Source: Candidatus Woesearchaeota archaeon
GTDB lineage: Archaea > Nanobdellota > Nanobdellia > Woesearchaeales > WJKL01
Assembly: GCA_014729675.1 (NCBI GenBank)
Contig: WJJM01000005.1
Location: 1-52,488, forward strand
DNA: 52,488 nt
Direction of reading: 5' to 3'
Shown here: positions 1-52,100 of the stretch, piece after piece
Numbering within the stretch: the first letter of the stretch is position 1
Layout of the letters: the number at the start of each line of letters is the position of its first letter
Translations under genes and position numbers: made by a program
The notes under the pieces: generated by a model
What the model saw: only the letters and a program-made list of their open reading frames with translations
Database searches by the model: none
Told to the model about the DNA's origin: nothing

Positions 1-47
1 ACTGCTCAAAGATTCGAAAGTTTTTTGTATGAATGATGTTATTTGTA

Positions 48-113
48 CCATGGTTTATTTCGCAAATTAAACCATGGGCTTCTCCTATGTGCTTTTTTCT
101 GAGCACTTAGGAG
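48..113. repeat. Two adjacent hairpins
   Basis: CCATGGTTTA (48-57) pairs with TAAACCATGG (68-77). CTCCTA-t-GTGCT (82-93) pairs with AGCAC-t-TAGGAG (102-113). Confidence 0.7.
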
Positions 114-200
114 GAGTCATTTTCTAATCGGAGATACTGAACTTAAAACCCTTCTTATTTAATAGGCGATTTGGGAACTTGCTTCCGCTTCGCTCCAGCA

Positions 201-291
201 CCTTTCCACTCTCAATTTCTCAGCCTATGCTCACTCTCGTTCGCATGGGAGAAATTGGAGGTCAGGGGAAAAGAACATCATTAGGCAAAAT
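201..291 (+). repeat. Cassette-boundary element 1 (CCACTCT hairpin plus core site)
   Basis: CCACTCT at 206, stem CAATTTCT/AGAAATTG, core AAGAA-CATCA-TTAGGCAAAAT; homologous to 758-851 and 1484-1576. Confidence 0.7.
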
Positions 292-306
292 TGAGAAAGG
301 GTAAAT

Positions 307-687
307 TTATTCTCTAAGTTTAAAATTTAATACTAATGACTCAAATGCAGAAGGTTCAATTTTTTCTTGTATTTTACTTTTGTTTAAATAAAGATAACAA
401 CATAATTCTTTGTATTTTTCAGGTGCATCATCTGAAATTCCTATAAAATGAATTGTAGCATCTTTAAATCCAGCATCTGTAAGTTGATGACCAAGAAATT
501 CAGGTCTTTTATTTTTATCAACATAATTTTTCCACATGTCAATTAAAACTTCACCATGTTCTTTGGGAGAATATTCAAATCCTTTTTCCCAACCACCTTG
601 CGGTTTTGGGATATAACCCCAATATCCACCATGACCTGAACCAAAACGAAGATCAACACCATCTACATTATCTATATTTATAGTCAT
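307..687 (-). CDS. Hypothetical protein (cassette gene 1)
   Basis: ORF 307..726. The ATG at 687 (MTINID) is preferred because a TTTATA box lies ~25 nt upstream and the 726 ATG falls inside the flanking inverted repeat. Confidence 0.65.
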   Translation of the reverse strand: MTINIDNVDGVDLRFGSGHGGYWGYIPKPQGGWEKGFEYSPKEHGEVLIDMWKNYVDKNKRPEFLGHQLTDAGFKDATIHFIGISDDAPEKYKELCCYLYLNKSKIQEKIEPSAFESLVLNFKLRE

Positions 688-757
688 TATTAAACAAAAG
701 TAAAACAAGTATAAATATTTTACCATTTCTCAACTCAAAATTTATTTCATAAATTTT

Positions 758-851
758 GCCCTTCCACTCTAAGATTTTCAGCACTGACCTCCTTATCAGT
801 CGGTCGTGGAAAATCTTGAGGGTAGGGTTGCCTAATACAATTGTGTCCAAT
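758..851 (+). repeat. Cassette-boundary element 2
   Basis: CCACTCT at 764; bulged stem CTC-t-AAGATTTTC..CAC-t-GACC / GGTC-GTG-GAAAATCTT-GAG; core CCTAA-TACAA-TTGTGTCCAAT. Confidence 0.75.
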
Positions 852-889
852 AAATCTGGAGTCCTAAATCTAGAAAGGGGCAAGAAAAC

Positions 890-1357
890 TTAAGAAAATA
901 ATCTTTTAAACCAATTTATTATTTTCTGTAAGAAATTTAATTTACAATCCTCAGGGCAATTACATTCATTTTCAATTTCACTATCACAAATCTCATCTCC
1001 ACAATTAGAACATATTGAAAGATAACCTGTAGGAGGATTCCAATTACATTTTGAATCAAAATATTCTTTCTGTTTTATAGCAACCAAACCTTCACAACAA
1101 GTATTTTCTGTTGGTGCAATTCCAAGCTCTGCACAAGGCAGTTCTGCATATTGACTGCATGGCTCTCCTCTTTCACCCCCTTCACCATCCATTGGATCAC
1201 ATTTAATTCCGCTTTCTAAAGTGCAGCTGTTGTTGTATGCATCATTATATTGACCACCATAAAGTCTACATCTTGTCCATGCAGGATTAGGTATTGCAGA
1301 AACTAATATTGCACCTAAGATAAAACTAATTGCAAAGGAAATAAATATTTTCTTCAT
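890..1357 (-). CDS. Secreted Cys-rich protein with DUF333-like N-terminal motif (cassette gene 2)
   Basis: Signal peptide, NPAxxxCxxxGG motif, CGDxICxxxxENxxNCPEDC motif, amphipathic C-terminal tail FLQKIINWFKRLF. Confidence 0.75.
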   Translation of the reverse strand: MKKIFISFAISFILGAILVSAIPNPAWTRCRLYGGQYNDAYNNSCTLESGIKCDPMDGEGGERGEPCSQYAELPCAELGIAPTENTCCEGLVAIKQKEYFDSKCNWNPPTGYLSICSNCGDEICDSEIENECNCPEDCKLNFLQKIINWFKRLFS

Positions 1358-1483
1358 TTTATGATATTTTATACCTTCTTATTTATTAAATTTTTGTTTT
1401 CTTGCCCTTACTATCTTTTATTAAGTATCGCATTCGCTCTTTTTATTTAACGGACTCCAGATTTACTCCTCCGCTTCGCTACG

Positions 1484-1576
1484 GTCGCCCCACTCTAAGT
1501 TTTGAGAAGGTCAAATGCTTCCGCTTTTGTCCATCAAATCTCGAAGGCAGGGCTACCTAACATCATTAGTTGCAAT
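1484..1576 (+). repeat. Cassette-boundary element 3
   Basis: CCACTCT at 1490; imperfect stem closed by GTCGCCC/GGGCTAC; core CCTAA-CATCA-TTAGTTGCAAT. Confidence 0.7.
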
Positions 1577-1600
1577 TAAGACTTCGGCAGTTACCAAGAA

Positions 1601-1828
1601 TTAAAATAATTTATTGACTATCTGTTCTATATTACTACAAAATTCTGGATTTGCTGTATATATGGTGGCCATCATCACAGGCACACTCTGGTAGTAAGTG
1701 TATCTCTTAATCTCTTTTTTACTCATATCACTTTTATCTCTAGGAATAAATGAAAAAAGTCCTAAATAAGGTATTTTGTCTACCCAGTTGGGCACATAAG
1801 AATTTACAAATTTTTCAAGTTTTTCCAT
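1601..1828 (-). CDS. Small hypothetical protein (cassette gene 3)
   Basis: 75-aa ORF with an upstream TATA-like AT box, enclosed by inverted repeats. Confidence 0.6.
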   Translation of the reverse strand: MEKLEKFVNSYVPNWVDKIPYLGLFSFIPRDKSDMSKKEIKRYTYYQSVPVMMATIYTANPEFCSNIEQIVNKLF

Positions 1829-1943
1829 TCTTATAAAATCATATAACCTCTATTAATAAATTTTTCTATTATCACCTGCCTTAGTCTTAAATTGCTCTGT
1901 TTTTCTCCGCAATCTTTTTAAAACAATATTCTTAATTTAACAT

Positions 1944-2867
1944 ATGCCAAAGCTCCCAAAAGAATTAAAACTTTTATTAGAAAAACAGCAGAACGAGGTC
2001 ATAGGAGAACATTCAGCTGTAAAGATATGCACCTGGACAAAAAAATCATTGAAAGACGAAGGAGTCTGCTATAAGGAGAAGTTCTACGGCATATCATCCC
2101 ATAGATGCTGCCAATTAAGCCCGTCTATGAATTTCTGTCAAAATTCTTGTATCTTCTGCTGGAGGCCTATTGAACACACCGTAGGAACAGAGATGAAGGG
2201 CAAGATTGACGACCCAAAAACTTTGATAGACAACGCGATAAAAGCACAAAGAAAGCTTCTTAACGGCTTTCCGGGCAATCCAAAAACAAACATGAAAAAG
2301 TTCAAACAAGCTCAGGACCCCAACCAGTTTGCCATATCTCTAAGTGGCGAACATACAATCTATCCAAAACTTGGAGAACTTATAGCTGAAATAAAAAAAA
2401 GAAAAGCAACGTCATATGTTGTTACAAATGGCATGCTCCCAGATAAGATAAAAACATTATCTCCTCTCCCGACCAACCTATACATATCCTTAGATGCACC
2501 AAATGAAACAATATTCAAAAAAGTAGACCGACCAAAGCTAAAAGATGCATGGAAAAGATTGAACAAGTCCTTAGATATACTAAAAACACTAGACACAACA
2601 ACTGTCCTAAGGGTAACTATGATAAAAGGCATGAACATGATAAAGCCGGAAAAATACGCAGAACTAATAGAAAAAGCACAGCCAGATCATGTAGAGCTAA
2701 AGGCCTATATGTTCGTCGGCTCCTCAAGACACAGGCTAACCATAGACAACATGCCTCGCCATCATGAAGTAAAAGAATTCACAGAACTCATCCTAAAACA
2801 TCTAAAAGATTACAGCTTAAAAGACGAAAAAAAAGAATCAAGAGTAGTTCTTCTCAAAAAACTATAG
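1944..2867 (+). CDS. taw1: 4-demethylwyosine synthase (radical SAM, Taw1/TYW1)
   Basis: HSAVKICTW, CYKEKFYGISSHRC, CQNSCIFCWRP (CxxxCxxC), ELKAYMFVGSSR, SRVVLL. Confidence 0.95.
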   Translation: MPKLPKELKLLLEKQQNEVIGEHSAVKICTWTKKSLKDEGVCYKEKFYGISSHRCCQLSPSMNFCQNSCIFCWRPIEHTVGTEMKGKIDDPKTLIDNAIKAQRKLLNGFPGNPKTNMKKFKQAQDPNQFAISLSGEHTIYPKLGELIAEIKKRKATSYVVTNGMLPDKIKTLSPLPTNLYISLDAPNETIFKKVDRPKLKDAWKRLNKSLDILKTLDTTTVLRVTMIKGMNMIKPEKYAELIEKAQPDHVELKAYMFVGSSRHRLTIDNMPRHHEVKEFTELILKHLKDYSLKDEKKESRVVLLKKL

Positions 2868-3959
2868 TTTGATGATCTGTGATTCTTTAACTCCTCTTTT
2901 TAACAGATATTTGTAATCCCTATTTGAGGGATTCAGCACATAAAGTTCTTTTTTCTTTTCTTTTGCAATGCCTGAAATATCTCCCAATACATTCTTTCCT
3001 ACAGAAGAAGCATAGTTAAGATCTATGAACAGGTCTTTATCATTATATCTTTTAAGCTTTTTCCTCAGTCTTTGAACCTCTTCCTGCAGTTTCTGGGGAT
3101 TTTTATCATATTTCACCATGACTTCTTCTTTTTCAAAAGAAAGGAATCCTTTCGTCCTGAATGAGACAACAGTCAGAAGCTCCTTGTATTTTTGCGCATC
3201 TATATCTACAGTCAATTTTATAGGTTTGCCGTTTGCTCTTTTGAACTGAAATGTTTTGTCTGTGACATCTCCTCCGCTTCTTGCTATCAGAAGATAGGCA
3301 TCAAACAATTTCTGGTTTATCTCATCATAGACTACTTCTTCATAATCTTTTTTCATGATGCCAGAACATTCATCATAACCCAATATCTTTCTGGCATTAT
3401 CGGTTACAGCTCGTATCTTATTGTCCCCATCTAAAAATATGACATTCTTGGTCTTGTAAGCAGAGAATAGGGTGTCCACAAGCTCTAAAGCGCTGTTTTC
3501 AAGAATATATGATTTGCTGGATATGTTGTCTTCTCTGCTCTTAAAAGATCCGTATTTGTTTTCAAGATAGTTGTTTATCTTTTCAAGTTCTGATACCTGT
3601 TTATCTCTTTCTTTAAGTTCATTCTTATATCCGAATAAAAGAGCATAAAGGCTTATTTCTTCTCTAAGATGTTTTAGTTTTGTCCCATCTTTCTGTTTGG
3701 TCATCTCCTCTTTTTCTTTTTCCTTTGTCCCAAGAGCATGTTCAAGATTCTCTATAACTTCCTCATCTCTTGTATATCTCTTCTCAGCTGCCTTGAAAAG
3801 CTCTTTGATCTCCTGCCTGTTCTTCTCCTGTTCTTCTATATGTTCGATCAGATCGTCCCTTAGTTTCTCTAACCTTTCTGTTCTTCTTTCCAGATCAGAA
3901 TAAGATGGCTTATCTTTCCATTCCTTAATCCTGCCTAATAATCCTTTTCTCTCTCCCAT
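2862..3959 (-). CDS. Coiled-coil + PAS-like + STAS-like domain protein
   Basis: N-terminal heptad-rich region; VIFLDGDNKIRAVTDNARKILGY is PAS-like; C-terminal LFIDLNY...LYVLNPS resembles STAS. Confidence 0.55.
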   Translation of the reverse strand: MGERKGLLGRIKEWKDKPSYSDLERRTERLEKLRDDLIEHIEEQEKNRQEIKELFKAAEKRYTRDEEVIENLEHALGTKEKEKEEMTKQKDGTKLKHLREEISLYALLFGYKNELKERDKQVSELEKINNYLENKYGSFKSREDNISSKSYILENSALELVDTLFSAYKTKNVIFLDGDNKIRAVTDNARKILGYDECSGIMKKDYEEVVYDEINQKLFDAYLLIARSGGDVTDKTFQFKRANGKPIKLTVDIDAQKYKELLTVVSFRTKGFLSFEKEEVMVKYDKNPQKLQEEVQRLRKKLKRYNDKDLFIDLNYASSVGKNVLGDISGIAKEKKKELYVLNPSNRDYKYLLKRGVKESQIIKL

Positions 3960-4094
3960 AATCCATAATATCAGAAAAAATCTAGTTTATATTTCTTTCT
4001 AAAATCTGTGCATTAGTATCAACAGCAAGATTTAAATACAATCTCTATCTTTTTGATAATATTATAACTAAACACTAAAAACGAGGTGCATACA

Positions 4095-5450
4095 ATGAAA
4101 AAAACATTGACTTTTTTTACAATCCTGATATTAGCTGCTAGTCTGGTTTCAGCGACAGAAACAAATCCAGGTCACTCAGCAGATGAGATAGGCGGGACAG
4201 ACATAGCAGACAGAACATTCCAGGATGCAGATTATTCTTTCCAGGATAATGTTGGGATAGGGACAGACAGCCCGACAAGATTATTGACTCTATCGGGTGA
4301 TGGCCCGGATGGCCTTAGGATAGAAAACAGCGGAGGAGACCCTAAAGCAAGGATTCTTGTTGATTCTAGTGACAGAGGTTTGCTTACATTATACAACTCA
4401 ACAGGTTCAGAAATAGTAAATCTAAGGACAGAAGGCGACAGCCATATCCGCGGCGGCAACGTAGGCATCGGAACATCATCTCCAACATCTAAACTCGAGG
4501 TAAAATCAGACCAGGGAAATGTTTTCATACTGAAGAACTCTTTAGACAACAACATATTCAGAGTATATAGCAACGAAGACGACCCCATTAATAATGGTGT
4601 CGTATTGCAGTTATCAAACGCATCAGGCGACATAAAAGCTGTAATAAGTTCAAGGGCAGAGCAGGACACTTATTTCAATGCAGGAAGCGGAAGCAACGTC
4701 GGCATCGGTACATCTTCACCATCTACCCCTTTCCATGTTTTGAGTGGAAGCGGTAATGAAGGAATCTATTCTCCAAGTGGATGGACAGTGGGTTTATTCC
4801 AGAGAAATGATGATTCTAATTACCATGCCAGAGTATCCATCTTAGCAGGTACTTCACAGACTGCAGGAATCTGGATGGGTGATAAAGATAATGAAGACAA
4901 TGGGGCCATCTGGACAGACAATTCAGACAATTCTCTTAATCTTGGAAATGGCCTATCCAATGCAGTCATAACTATAGATTCATCAGATAATGTCGGCATC
5001 GGAACAACAAGCCCAGGTGCTAAACTACAGGTGGGAGACATAAAGATAGGAAGCAAGCCTAGTGGCCTAGCAGGTCCTACAGGAGGAGATGGCATACATG
5101 CAGATGGACATCTGCATATCCAAAGTGATGGAAGTAATAATGGCAATGGAGATATTCAGTTGAATAAATGGTCATCAGGCGATGTATTCATGGTATTAGG
5201 TGGCGGAAGTGTCGGCATTGGCACAAATTCTCCAAGCTACAAACTGCATGTTGAGGGAAGCCTTGGAGCACATAACTTCTATGACGAACAGTCTCCTACA
5301 TATTACCTTAATCCTGGAGAGGCAGGCACTTCAGCTAACCTCAGGGGAGATATCACAGCAGGAGGGCTTTCAGGTACAGGCACAGCAAGAGTTTGTGCAT
5401 TAAGCGATGGAACACTGTGCAGGAACGGAGATTCAGGCTGCAGCTGTTGA
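4095..5450 (+). CDS. Secreted fibre/adhesin-like protein with five (N/S)VGIGTxSP repeats
   Basis: Signal peptide from MKKTL; five VGIGT.SP repeats; Gly/Ser/Asp/Asn-rich; Cys-rich C-terminus. Confidence 0.75.
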   Translation: MKKTLTFFTILILAASLVSATETNPGHSADEIGGTDIADRTFQDADYSFQDNVGIGTDSPTRLLTLSGDGPDGLRIENSGGDPKARILVDSSDRGLLTLYNSTGSEIVNLRTEGDSHIRGGNVGIGTSSPTSKLEVKSDQGNVFILKNSLDNNIFRVYSNEDDPINNGVVLQLSNASGDIKAVISSRAEQDTYFNAGSGSNVGIGTSSPSTPFHVLSGSGNEGIYSPSGWTVGLFQRNDDSNYHARVSILAGTSQTAGIWMGDKDNEDNGAIWTDNSDNSLNLGNGLSNAVITIDSSDNVGIGTTSPGAKLQVGDIKIGSKPSGLAGPTGGDGIHADGHLHIQSDGSNNGNGDIQLNKWSSGDVFMVLGGGSVGIGTNSPSYKLHVEGSLGAHNFYDEQSPTYYLNPGEAGTSANLRGDITAGGLSGTGTARVCALSDGTLCRNGDSGCSC

Positions 5451-50240: not shown

Positions 50241-50735
50241 AACTTTTAAGATTTTATTATTTATTTTATTCTCTATTTTTTCTAAGCTTTGCTTAAAACT
50301 TTTAAATATAGAATATTTTTAAAAATTTGATTATGACTTTTTATTTGCATACATCAATTTATATTTTTAATATTGAAAATAATCAGGATAGATTATACAT
50401 TTAAATCAACCCAAAATGCCTAACTTCTATAACCTTAGAATTAGGGCTTAATATGTTCAAATTCACCCTTTTTAGCCATTTTTATCATTTTTAGTGTAAA
50501 AACTGCGTTTAATGTACCTTAGATGCCGTTTTATGAATCTCTACAGAAAAATGTAAAACTATAATCTAGATCAATGAAATAACACAATTAATTTTCTATA
50601 TTATAAAACATTTAGTTTTTGCTTAATACTTTTATATTCTATTTATTTTAGTTTTTGCTTAAATGTTTTATACGCACTGACCACTGTTCAAGTGTAGGCA
50701 TAATATTTATATATACGAACATCTTTTTACTAATA

Positions 50736-51221
50736 ATGGAAAGAAATCCTAATCAAAGAAGAATAATAAAATGTGAAGGTTGTGGGGAAGAAAAAGAACA
50801 TCATGCAAAAGAGATGTGTTTGAACTGCTATAGGCGAATTGCATGGAAAAGAAAGAATGTTATCTGTAAAAATTGTGGAAGAAACTTACCCCACAAAGCA
50901 TATGGACTTTGTCAAACATGTCATATTAAGCTGCACCATTATGATAAAGTAAAAGCCCATAATTATAGAAAATGGCATAATGTAGATTTAGATTTATACC
51001 GAAAAATAATTAAAAAATGTCTAATATGTGATTTTGATAAAATTGTTGATTTACACCATTTAGATGGAGATCATAAGAATAATTCTGAAGAAAATCTTAT
51101 TGGATTATGCCCAAACCATCACAAATTACTCCATGATATGCGTTTTAAGGAAGAAACTCAGAAAGAAATAGATAAAAGGCTCAATCCTGAATATTTTAAA
51201 CGCACTTTTCAAAACAATTAA
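50736..51221 (+). CDS. HNH endonuclease with two N-terminal zinc-finger repeats
   Basis: Two CxxC..HxAxxxCxxC repeats; CxxC..DLHHLDGDHKNN..NL..LCPNHH. Confidence 0.88.
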   Translation: MERNPNQRRIIKCEGCGEEKEHHAKEMCLNCYRRIAWKRKNVICKNCGRNLPHKAYGLCQTCHIKLHHYDKVKAHNYRKWHNVDLDLYRKIIKKCLICDFDKIVDLHHLDGDHKNNSEENLIGLCPNHHKLLHDMRFKEETQKEIDKRLNPEYFKRTFQNN

Positions 51222-51251: not shown

Positions 51252-52100
51252 ATGGTGCTCCAAAAACTAGAAACAGAACTAAGGCTAAGAGGATTTTCAG
51301 AAAAGACAGTAAAAAACTATATTTTCTATAATCAAAAATTCTTAGATTTTATAAACAAGCAGCCAGAAGATATCCAAGAAGATGATATAAAATCATTCAT
51401 TGCACATCTGATGTCAGACAAAAACTATAAGCCTGCATCAACAAACTTAGCTATCTGCTCTTTAAGGTATTTCTATGAAAAAGTCCTTGAAAAAGAGATA
51501 TTTACAAAAATAACTCCTCCAAAATCAGAAAAAAAGATCCCTACAGTTCTAACAAAAGAAGAATTGAGCCAATTGTTCAATGCAATAAATAACAAAAAAC
51601 ACAGGATACTATTAGAACTCATGTATTCTTCAGGATTAAGGGTCAGTGAAGCAGTATCATTAAAGTTTGAAGACCTAAACTTAAATGAAAAAGTGGGTAT
51701 TGTACGCCAGGCAAAAGGAAGAAAAGACAGGATCATAATCCTCTCAAATAATACCGTAGACAAACTGGAAAAATATAAGAAAAAAAGAGATAAAAAGAAA
51801 CTATTCCCAGATAATCCTTATATATTCCCATCAAACAAACAAAAAGAATCCCATATGTCTATAAGGCAGGCTCAGAAAGTGATAAATGACGCAGCTAAAA
51901 AAGCAGGCATAAAAAAGAGGGTATTCTGCCATTCATTAAGAAGCAGCTTTGCAACACATCTGTTAGACTCAGGCACAGATATAAGAGTCATCCAGGAATT
52001 GCTAGGCCACTCTAACCTCTCTACTACAGAAAGATACACAAAAGTCTCTACAGAGCAATTAAAGAAAGTAAGATCTCCTTTTGATAATATTAAATTCTAA
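51252..52100 (+). CDS. xerA: Tyrosine recombinase, XerA/integron-integrase-like
   Basis: SAM-like N-domain (LRGFSEKT..Y), SGLRVSE, KG.K.R, HSLR, LGH, T..Y; no IntI-specific insertion visible. Confidence 0.88.
   Translation: MVLQKLETELRLRGFSEKTVKNYIFYNQKFLDFINKQPEDIQEDDIKSFIAHLMSDKNYKPASTNLAICSLRYFYEKVLEKEIFTKITPPKSEKKIPTVLTKEELSQLFNAINNKKHRILLELMYSSGLRVSEAVSLKFEDLNLNEKVGIVRQAKGRKDRIIILSNNTVDKLEKYKKKRDKKKLFPDNPYIFPSNKQKESHMSIRQAQKVINDAAKKAGIKKRVFCHSLRSSFATHLLDSGTDIRVIQELLGHSNLSTTERYTKVSTEQLKKVRSPFDNIKF

Follow-up and report, generated by a model that had tools for sequence, protein, structure and literature searches.

The window analysed here is an entire contig (C61, 52,488 bp) of a Candidatus Woesearchaeota archaeon, from a genome bin of 1.44 Mb in 72 contigs that is 92% complete. 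Near the start of the contig, on the + strand, lie three elements (199-296, 757-856 and 1483-1581), each consisting of a bulged hairpin of about 70 nt followed by a core of the form TAA-5 nt-TTA, and short open reading frames (ORFs) stand between and after them. Judging from the sequence of this locus and of its relatives, we consider it likely that the three elements serve as recombination sites in an integron-like array of gene cassettes, so that the array would be an integron analogue with a non-canonical site. What is observed is a conserved DNA shape beside a simple core, the arrangement of the sites in arrays, cassettes bounded at TT, complementarity of cassette ends at two levels, and linkage to one clade of recombinases. 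The acting enzyme is most likely a member of that clade, a DPANN-specific paralogue of XerA that we call group B.

Structure of the elements

Each element carries the heptamer CCACTCT (at 206, 764 and 1490), and the spacer of the core starts 70, 72 and 71 nt further on in elements 1, 2 and 3. The cores read AAGAA-CATCA-TTAGG (271-285), CCTAA-TACAA-TTGTG (831-845) and CCTAA-CATCA-TTAGT (1556-1570), and the motif TCCGCTTCGCT is found ahead of elements 1 and 3 (184-194 and 1470-1480). The original prediction, which was made from the letters of the window, gave the same positions and distances and the same placement of the motif, and these agree with our re-reading of the sequence. The heptamer itself is not enriched in the window (7 found versus 5.2 expected; 26 of 100 shuffles reach 7). 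Folding of the single sequences gives + strand z scores of -1.58, -4.66 and -0.34 for the three elements, significant for element 2 only.

Does the conservation then lie in the pairing? Two covariance models were used, R1, built from the three window copies, and R2, built from 26 copies. Unpublished genomes (G003, G005, G006, G008 and G141) feed R2, its alignments, several of the 55-copy and 29-cassette statistics given below and part of the orientation counts; the key statistics were redone on public records only, with R2 still as the search tool. When the three window copies are laid on one common structure of 27 pairs, both sides have changed in 13 of the 27, and 86% of the paired cells pair versus 70% in shuffles, a value that none of 500 shuffles reaches. 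The claim that the stems differ in sequence with pairing kept is thus sustained. Among the 26 copies, double changes are found in 24 of 26 pairs, and among 45 copies from public records alone in all 26; compensatory change of the kind that a check proposed with the original prediction looks for is thus seen. In these public copies 89.9% of the paired cells pair, versus 60.9% after shuffling; a shift of the partner by one column lowers the figure to about 50%. Because the larger alignments were fitted to a covariance model, they are biased towards the structure of that model; this does not affect the shifted controls or the MAFFT alignment of the three window copies.

Two details of the hairpin bear on its nature. 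Among 1355 ungapped hairpin cells there are 1196 Watson-Crick pairs, 20 G-T and 27 A-C, so that neither strand is wobble-tolerant, which argues against an RNA read from either strand. The count in the outer repeats described below, 35 G-T versus 49 A-C, comes from alignments extending into the flanks and says nothing on this point. Two bulge columns are conserved, 3 bp apart, with an A in 33 and a T in 48 of the 55 aligned copies.

The aligned copies and their flanks give the anatomy of the full site. On the modelled strand the order is an inverted repeat (IR'), ACT(C/T), a linker, the main hairpin, the left (L) arm, the spacer, the right (R) arm, AA, and a second inverted repeat (IR). The linker, 16-40 nt long, comes in two forms, a mini-hairpin like AAAAYCC-TTCG-GGRTTTT and a motif of the CTCCGCTTCG type, to which TCCGCTTCGCT belongs. 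The L arm is 8 nt and ends in YTAA, and the R arm is 8 nt and starts with TTAR. The hairpin of about 70 nt and its core, originally taken as the whole element, therefore stand; the extent does not, as the linker, the 8-nt cassette-specific arms and the outer cassette-specific inverted repeats also belong to the site.

The description of the core needs a similar correction. A 5-nt spacer is present in 50 of the 55 aligned copies and a 6-nt spacer in the other 5. The ATT that was thought to define the core is a minority variant, since the base preceding TT is G in 34 copies, A in 19 and C in 2. The family consensus is RYYYAAC-3 nt-GTTRRRY, which corresponds to the integron R-box boxes, so the view that the core is unlike attC in sequence had to be abandoned; it is the arrangement that is new. 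In all 55 copies both boxes sit together 3' of the hairpin, and the columns 5' of it hold no conserved AAC or GTT. The commonest spacer is CATCG (21 of 55 copies), and spacers vary inside one array, as in G010, which has CACAG, CTATG, CAATG and CATCA.

Arrays, cassette ends and recombinases

A scan of related genomes with a covariance model of the three elements had been suggested at the outset. R1 gives full-length matches, with E values down to 1.5e-12, in 9 of 61 related genomes, the window's own included; of the 10 further genomes from its family, 7 are among those matched. The copies are clustered; G005 and G010 have seven each, six of them on one contig in both genomes. R2 finds copies in 12 of 151 genomes sampled evenly from the order, patchily across families, and G141 alone has 18. 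The copies are not dispersed: each genome has them at one locus or a few, in one-directional arrays with at most about 13 copies. The start-to-start spacing over 40 cassettes is 184-2919 bp, with a median of 662. The public records with a linked recombinase come from bins titled Woesearchaeota, Nanoarchaeota or Nanoarchaeia. A search for the exact core pattern in about 596 billion bases of genome contigs gave 21 stretches versus about 17 expected by chance (our own estimate, from 18 fixed bases), of which only L157, L159, L160, L163, L164 and L168 also have the hairpin; in viral contigs the same pattern gave 2 stretches, neither with the hairpin. L164, a public contig of 4569 bp from a Gammaproteobacteria-titled bin, holds ten full model matches and one weak one within 4.5 kb (99-4538), with several gene-less units of 184-208 bp and a GC content of 0.35-0.46, and is either an archaeal contig placed in the wrong bin or a sign that the elements occur in both domains. 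Two matches also lie on L168, a contig 2.2 kb long from a bin titled Hydrothermarchaeales.

What marks the end of a cassette? When the R arm of one core is compared with the L arm of the next, the two are complementary at 8 of 8 positions in 16 of 29 cassettes and at 7 of 8 in another 4 (mean 6.97), versus a mean of 5.11 for the two arms of the same core (n=55) and 4.89 for all pairs. With public records only, 16 of 24 cassettes reach 8 of 8 (mean 7.29), the arms of the same core average 5.27, and 4.1% of all pairs reach 8 of 8. Cassette 1 of the window is one of the perfect cases, with TTAGGCAA and TTGCCTAA complementary at all 8 positions. Complementarity across neighbouring cores therefore suggests that crossover takes place inside the 5-nt spacer, and that each cassette was formerly a circle with a palindromic site. 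Two junction comparisons, which rest wholly on unpublished genomes, bear on the same point. In G141, two neighbouring cassettes found on C20 and again, as homologues, on C23 turn near-identical exactly at the TT of the right arm, and the base before TT, the spacer and the left arm differ. In G005, one element has a hairpin and left arm 96% like those of one site and a right flank like that of another.

The second level of complementarity lies further out. The IR that follows a core pairs with the IR' that precedes the next hairpin; these outer repeats are 12-25 nt long and cassette-specific. Their score is at least 12 in 25 of 27 adjacent pairs, and the 99th percentile of 1163 non-adjacent pairs is 11. 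In public records only, with a narrower search window, a score of at least 12 is reached in 11 of 22 adjacent versus 2 of 734 non-adjacent pairs, the short gene-less units scoring lower. Simulated circle junctions fold to a mean of -37.8 kcal/mol, versus -25.0 with a non-cognate right half, a gain of 12.8 kcal/mol; in 25 of 26 cases it is the cognate junction that folds to the lower energy. The outer stem appears in 25 of the folds, and pairing of the arms in 22.

Which enzyme acts at these sites? The window's genome has five tyrosine-recombinase matches, one of them the gene at 51252 that was first proposed as the recombinase. This gene is the housekeeping XerA orthologue (group A), context only and probably not the dedicated recombinase; one orthologue 63-70% identical to its protein is present in each of five relatives, and it falls outside the array-linked clade. 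Proteins of group B are 36-39% identical to group A. In G005 a gene of this group lies 2.5 kb away from the first element, and in G157 the distance to an element is 1.1 kb. A public survey by alignment search with group B gave 79 loci, of which 61 were scanned with R2; the G-labelled genomes were kept out of the count to avoid double counting. Six public records (L069, L070, L075, L077, L097 and L088, the last cut by the contig end) have elements on the strand opposite to the group B gene and upstream of it, and in these the array begins 130-300 bp upstream of the divergently oriented gene. Many other group B genes start 170-760 bp from the contig end on the array side. In a complete, one-contig genome, G107 (L179, 4369-14764), the group B gene is followed by an attI-like core and then by an array with divergent hairpins and a 6-nt spacer, TAA-N6-TTA. 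R2 misses these sites, and the system is therefore broader than R2 detects.

In a midpoint-rooted tree of 42 recombinase rows, from which three truncated ORFs (L105, L111 and L117) and two non-recombinase ORFs had been dropped, group B forms one clade (support 100/99, 18 rows) that holds all 5 of the array-linked genes included. Its sister group is formed by the archaeal XerA orthologues (93/86), and the IntI clade is separate (100/100). On TIGR02249 (cut-off 265) group B reaches 200-220 bits, and its best stretch stops near profile position 180, ahead of the IntI-specific region; the bacterial clade, which came from the same search, is true IntI, at 439-483 bits over positions 1-315. On NF040815 (cut-off 220) eight group B proteins score 213.5-233.2 bits, six above the cut-off and two just below. 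One group B gene (L033; G007:C51:218-1017) is broken by three stop codons, 1 TAG and 2 TAA, and G007 has a single element.

Beside the recombinase gene there is also a candidate attI-like site, a hairpin-less core TATAA(A)-N-GTTA...CAAT. It lies upstream of the start codon, at about 215 bp in L063 and about 190 bp in L070, and the IR' of the first cassette can pair with its right flank. By eye such cores are seen at at least 12 of 23 loci, a softer count than the 5 of 30 given by a strict regular expression. The central claim of the original prediction, that a structure-defined tyrosine recombinase site of a new type separates the cassettes, thus appears to be borne out, as far as comparative sequence evidence goes, by the arrays in relatives, the complementarity of cassette ends, the adjacency of one recombinase clade and the attI-like site.

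How might such a system work? We propose that a tyrosine recombinase would cut and exchange strands in the spacer, immediately 5' of TT. The cassette unit would begin with the right arm of one core, continue through the gene or genes and end with the next core's hairpin and left arm. Recombination of two neighbouring sites would release a circle in which the two arms of the same cassette join as a perfect palindrome, and in which the outer cassette-specific repeats close a stem around the entire site. Insertion of the circle would open the palindromic site in the spacer, leaving the halves at the two ends of the cassette. The site would be used as folded single-stranded DNA in at least one step, like attC, in a branched fold with an outer stem, the main hairpin and a core mini-hairpin. 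Such a folded single-stranded substrate is suggested because the arm and IR sequences vary by cassette yet stay complementary, and so are readable by base pairing only. Different spacers would block the classical two-strand exchange, though not a one-strand exchange that is resolved by replication, as in attC. The differing spacers of one array would accordingly fit exchange of one strand only. One may go further, and suppose that Woesearchaeota-like DPANN archaea have a second, independently built kind of integron, with a XerA-derived recombinase that lacks the IntI domain, circular cassettes, a branched, cloverleaf-like single-stranded site that includes the linker hairpin, and one-strand exchange at a 5-nt spacer. 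This fuller picture is possible, and we offer it tentatively, stopping short of calling it probable.

The array in the window

The window appears to hold a recombinase-less array of 3-4 sites at a contig end (Table 1). Besides the three elements, no further copy was found in the window's genome either by nhmmer with the three copies, which gave one extra match at E 8.2, or by the covariance model. A hidden Markov model (HMM) of the core only, used to look for a solitary dif-like site in the same genome, gave nothing beyond the three cores at useful E values, and dif was not identified in this way. An Rfam scan of the entire window gave 0 families at gathering score. No sequencing run, and no RNA data set, was listed as containing positions 1-2000 of the window. 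A solitary match to the hairpin part of the model (positions 3-76, E 3.7e-4), without a core, lies elsewhere in the window's genome (G000:C33:2720-2796). The candidate inverted element E0 ahead of element 1 scores weakly with the model (9.5 bits, E 0.63 over 4 kb).

Table 1. Coordinates of the array and of related features in the window (aa, amino acids)
Feature	Position	Strand	Details
Candidate inverted short-hairpin element E0 (tentative)	26-77	-	Hairpin 77-48; inverted repeats I20 and I21
Arms and spacer of E0	46-26	-	L arm ACAAATAA 46-39; spacer CATCA 38-34; R arm TTCATACA 33-26; read from sequence
Linker of element 1	176-200	+	Begins ACTT; contains TCCGCTTCGCT 184-194; the ACT(C/T) boundary and CTTCG-type motif recur in other arrays
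Main bulged hairpin, element 1	201-268	+	Covariance model 88.5 bits
Core of element 1	268-290	+	L arm GAAAAGAA 268-275; spacer CATCA 276-280; R arm TTAGGCAA 281-288; AA 289-290
IR of cassette 1	291-305	+	Cassette-specific inverted repeat; partner 719-733; score 12.5 (99th percentile of non-adjacent pairs 11)
ORF of cassette 1	307-726	-	139 aa as listed, 126-aa form in protein collection; no Pfam family; homologue is itself only
IR' of cassette 1 and linker of element 2	719-758	+	IR' 719-733, then ACTC and mini-hairpin 734-758
Main bulged hairpin, element 2	759-827	+	z -4.66; covariance model 89.2 bits
Core of element 2	828-850	+	L arm TTGCCTAA 828-835; spacer TACAA 836-840; R arm TTGTGTCC 841-848; AA 849-850
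IR of cassette 2	851-864	+	TAAATCTGGAGTCC; inverted repeat I2; partner 1451-1464; score 14
ORF of cassette 2	890-1357	-	155 aa; hydrophobic N-terminus, Cys-rich; no Pfam family; two homologues at 58-63% identity
IR' of cassette 2 and linker of element 3	1451-1484	+	IR' 1451-1464; linker with TCCGCTTCGCT 1470-1480
Main bulged hairpin, element 3	1485-1552	+	Poorest pairing of the three; z -0.34 (+), -1.69 (-); 66.3 bits, several non-standard pairs
Core of element 3	1553-1575	+	L arm CTACCTAA 1553-1560; spacer CATCA 1561-1565; R arm TTAGTTGC 1566-1573; AA 1574-1575
IR of cassette 3	1576-1591	+	Imperfect partner 1873-1893; read from sequence
ORF of cassette 3	1601-1828	-	75 aa; no Pfam family
IR' of cassette 3 (tentative)	1873-1893	+	No hairpin/core or model match before the TYW1-like gene (1944-2867)
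XerA orthologue (group A)	51252-52100	+	Pfam; NF040815 254 bits

The IR of cassette 3 was left out of the repeat statistics, as no element follows it. Because no hairpin or core lies between its partner repeat and the TYW1-like gene, this may be the distal end of the array. In the same-genus genome G001, the interval next to the TYW1-like gene lacks an element and does not resemble positions 1-1900 of the window, and the genes beyond that interval match the end of contig C1 of the window's genome. This synteny places the array between C1 and the TYW1-like gene, and the assembly therefore breaks inside the array, which probably continues into the assembly gap next to C1. The last 120 bp of C1 (G000:C1:7420-7542) contain ACTC and an AAAAATC-TGT-GATTTTT mini-hairpin, and are linker-like. 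A circular 52-kb replicon that would unite the 51252 recombinase with the array was considered and rejected, as the ends of the contig do not overlap and the G001 synteny puts C1 to the left of the array. Content at a fixed locus also varies between G010 and G004: eight model matches in G010 lie between two genes that in G004 flank one element.

As to the genes, the IR' of cassette 1 overlaps the listed start codon (724-726) of the 139-aa ORF; given also the 126-aa form, the true start is probably further in. Elsewhere in the window, a 454-aa ORF (4086-5450, +) with an N-terminal hydrophobic segment and many N-V-G-I-G-T-x-S-P-like repeats looks like a secreted repeat protein, and a 188-aa ORF directly upstream of the XerA orthologue (50655-51221, +) has weak zinc-ribbon and HNH-endonuclease matches. 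Y1 (IS200/IS605-type) matches in the window's genome are found at C35:3905-4267, C71:1374-1736, C71:127-420 and C30:35629-35778, one with an internal TAG and none near the array.

Alternative explanations and known systems

Several observations weigh against an integron-like array served by group B. The spacers of tyrosine recombinases are usually 6-8 bp, and the 5-bp spacer here is shorter. The link to group B is incomplete; about 18 group B loci have 1.5 kb or more of sequence upstream, and only 5 of them give strong R2 matches. Group B (E of 1e-90 or less) is found in 27 of the 151 order-sample genomes, 6 of the 12 that are R2-positive and 21 of the 139 that are R2-negative, and the half of the R2-positive genomes with no detected group B gene is not explained by our model. 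No group B gene was found in the window's 92%-complete genome, where the group B profile matches the XerA orthologue best (246 bits). In cassette 2 of the window, the R arm of element 2 and the L arm of element 3 are complementary at just 4 of 8 positions. In G141, unrelated linker-hairpin modules separate homologous neighbouring cassettes, which a single crossover point cannot explain. The orientation of the cassette genes is only loosely fixed: of 40 cassettes, 22 have their longest ORF of at least 50 aa antisense to the modelled strand, 12 have it in the sense direction, and 6 have no such ORF. Finally, 15 of the 26 rows of the R2 training alignment come from unpublished genomes, and all the genomes are metagenome bins, in which arrays often reach contig ends. 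Divergent elements such as those of G107 may explain part of the incomplete linkage to group B.

Might the housekeeping enzyme be enough? The elements could be dif mimics moved by XerA (the 51252 gene), like other Xer-exploiting elements or the pdif modules of plasmids, with group B irrelevant or redundant. The likeness to Xer systems is considerable: the core is a simple inverted repeat with Xer-type TAA...TTA inner arms, the recombinases here score as XerA family (214-254 bits on NF040815, around its cut-off), and the related sites of G107 have the dif-like spacer length. Arrays without group B exist, in the window's genome and in G010, where a XerA-like query gave the XerA orthologue and a weak 27% match only. 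We nevertheless think this explanation unlikely. XerA orthologues are present in all five relatives searched, many-element or one-element alike, so the presence of XerA does not track the arrays, and the gene that is repeatedly next to arrays, always divergent from them, is a member of the other clade. In archaea dif occurs as one site, has 11-bp arms around a 6-bp spacer and needs no hairpin (PMC2958812, excerpts), whereas here there are many sites per locus, predominantly 5-nt spacers, cassette-specific outer arm positions and an adjoining structured module.

One could also suppose that these are ordinary attC sites of the known archaeal integrons, the array then being an integrase-less attC cluster. 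Nanoarchaeota integrons and integrase-less attC clusters have been reported, and integrons have a tyrosine recombinase gene divergent from an array of short cassettes of mostly unknown function (Ghaly et al. 2022, PMC9668308, excerpts), as seen here. The systems share a hairpin-less proximal site beside the recombinase gene, cassette sites that keep their shape with free sequence and bulged bases, core boxes that fit RYYYAAC and GTTRRRY, cassette homology that begins at TT (known here from comparison), and complementary cassette ends that would formerly have been one site of a circle. There are also differences. Here the boxes are neighbours beside the hairpin, on the same side of it, and AAC is separated from GTT by 3 nt, whereas those of attC are at opposite ends and pair as the base of the hairpin; the bulges here are A and T, 3 bp apart, and those of attC are G and T, about 6 bp apart (PMC7439510, excerpts, for attC). 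The outer repeats and the linker are additions that give a branched predicted fold. Most of the cassette genes face the recombinase gene instead of pointing away from it. The recombinase has no IntI-specific domain, is well below the TIGR02249 cut-off, and falls in a clade related to archaeal XerA, outside that of IntI. From the box arrangement and the missing domain it follows that membership of the attC and IntI families fails, and we regard this explanation as very unlikely.

Imperfect, bulged DNA hairpins beside a short cleavage motif are also found at the subterminal ends of IS200/IS605 elements; these and the palindrome-associated repeats are dispersed, and are moved by HUH (Y1) transposases. 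The elements might accordingly be selfish structured repeats (repetitive extragenic palindromes, miniature inverted-repeat transposable elements or palindrome-associated repeats) that spread by a HUH transposase or by replication slippage, with no exchange of cassettes. Both kinds would be read as single-stranded DNA, putatively in the present case. Y1 transposases are indeed encoded on C35, C71 and C30, some units are short and have no ORF, like those of L164, and the hairpin modules of G141 look exchangeable independently of the cassettes. But the transposase contigs have no strong model match, the strong ones being only the three on C61, where there is no Y1_Tnp; the copies stand in one-directional arrays at few loci, linked to a tyrosine recombinase, and are not dispersed; and since the complementary ends differ for each cassette, no transposase could recognise them. 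It is improbable in the extreme that such repeats account for the arrays. That the elements act as RNA, whether as terminators of the upstream minus-strand genes or as 5' leader or processing structures of the downstream ones, can scarcely be credited: in the window they do lie 16-39 nt past the stop of one ORF and 33-128 nt ahead of the next start, and the cassette-end repeats could pair both ends of an mRNA, but the hairpin shows no wobble asymmetry, no Rfam family matches, ORF orientation is mixed, and an RNA role would account for neither the complementarity of arms across cassettes nor the linkage to a recombinase.

We return then to the integron analogue, and to what it would mean. In integrons, the textbook example, a recombinase recognises DNA by its shape and not by its sequence; how attC and IntI arose is still debated. 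The arrangement described here was not found in the full-text literature searched; the archaeal attC lists in the supplements of PMC9668308, outside that search, may overlap with it. The review PMC8371274 has no passage on DPANN or on cassettes. The same logic, carried out by a Xer-type enzyme with no IntI domain at a Xer- or attI-like core beside a structured module, would provide either a testable intermediate or a convergent solution. If this is true, recombination sites that are read by structure arose more than once, or the sites described here retain a stage between simple Xer sites and attC. Software that looks for integrons by IntI and canonical attC may overlook whole classes of cassette platforms, and sites that are defined by structure and free in sequence would be of interest to recombination technology. 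For these very small, host-dependent archaea, such a system would explain how accessory genes are acquired and shuffled.

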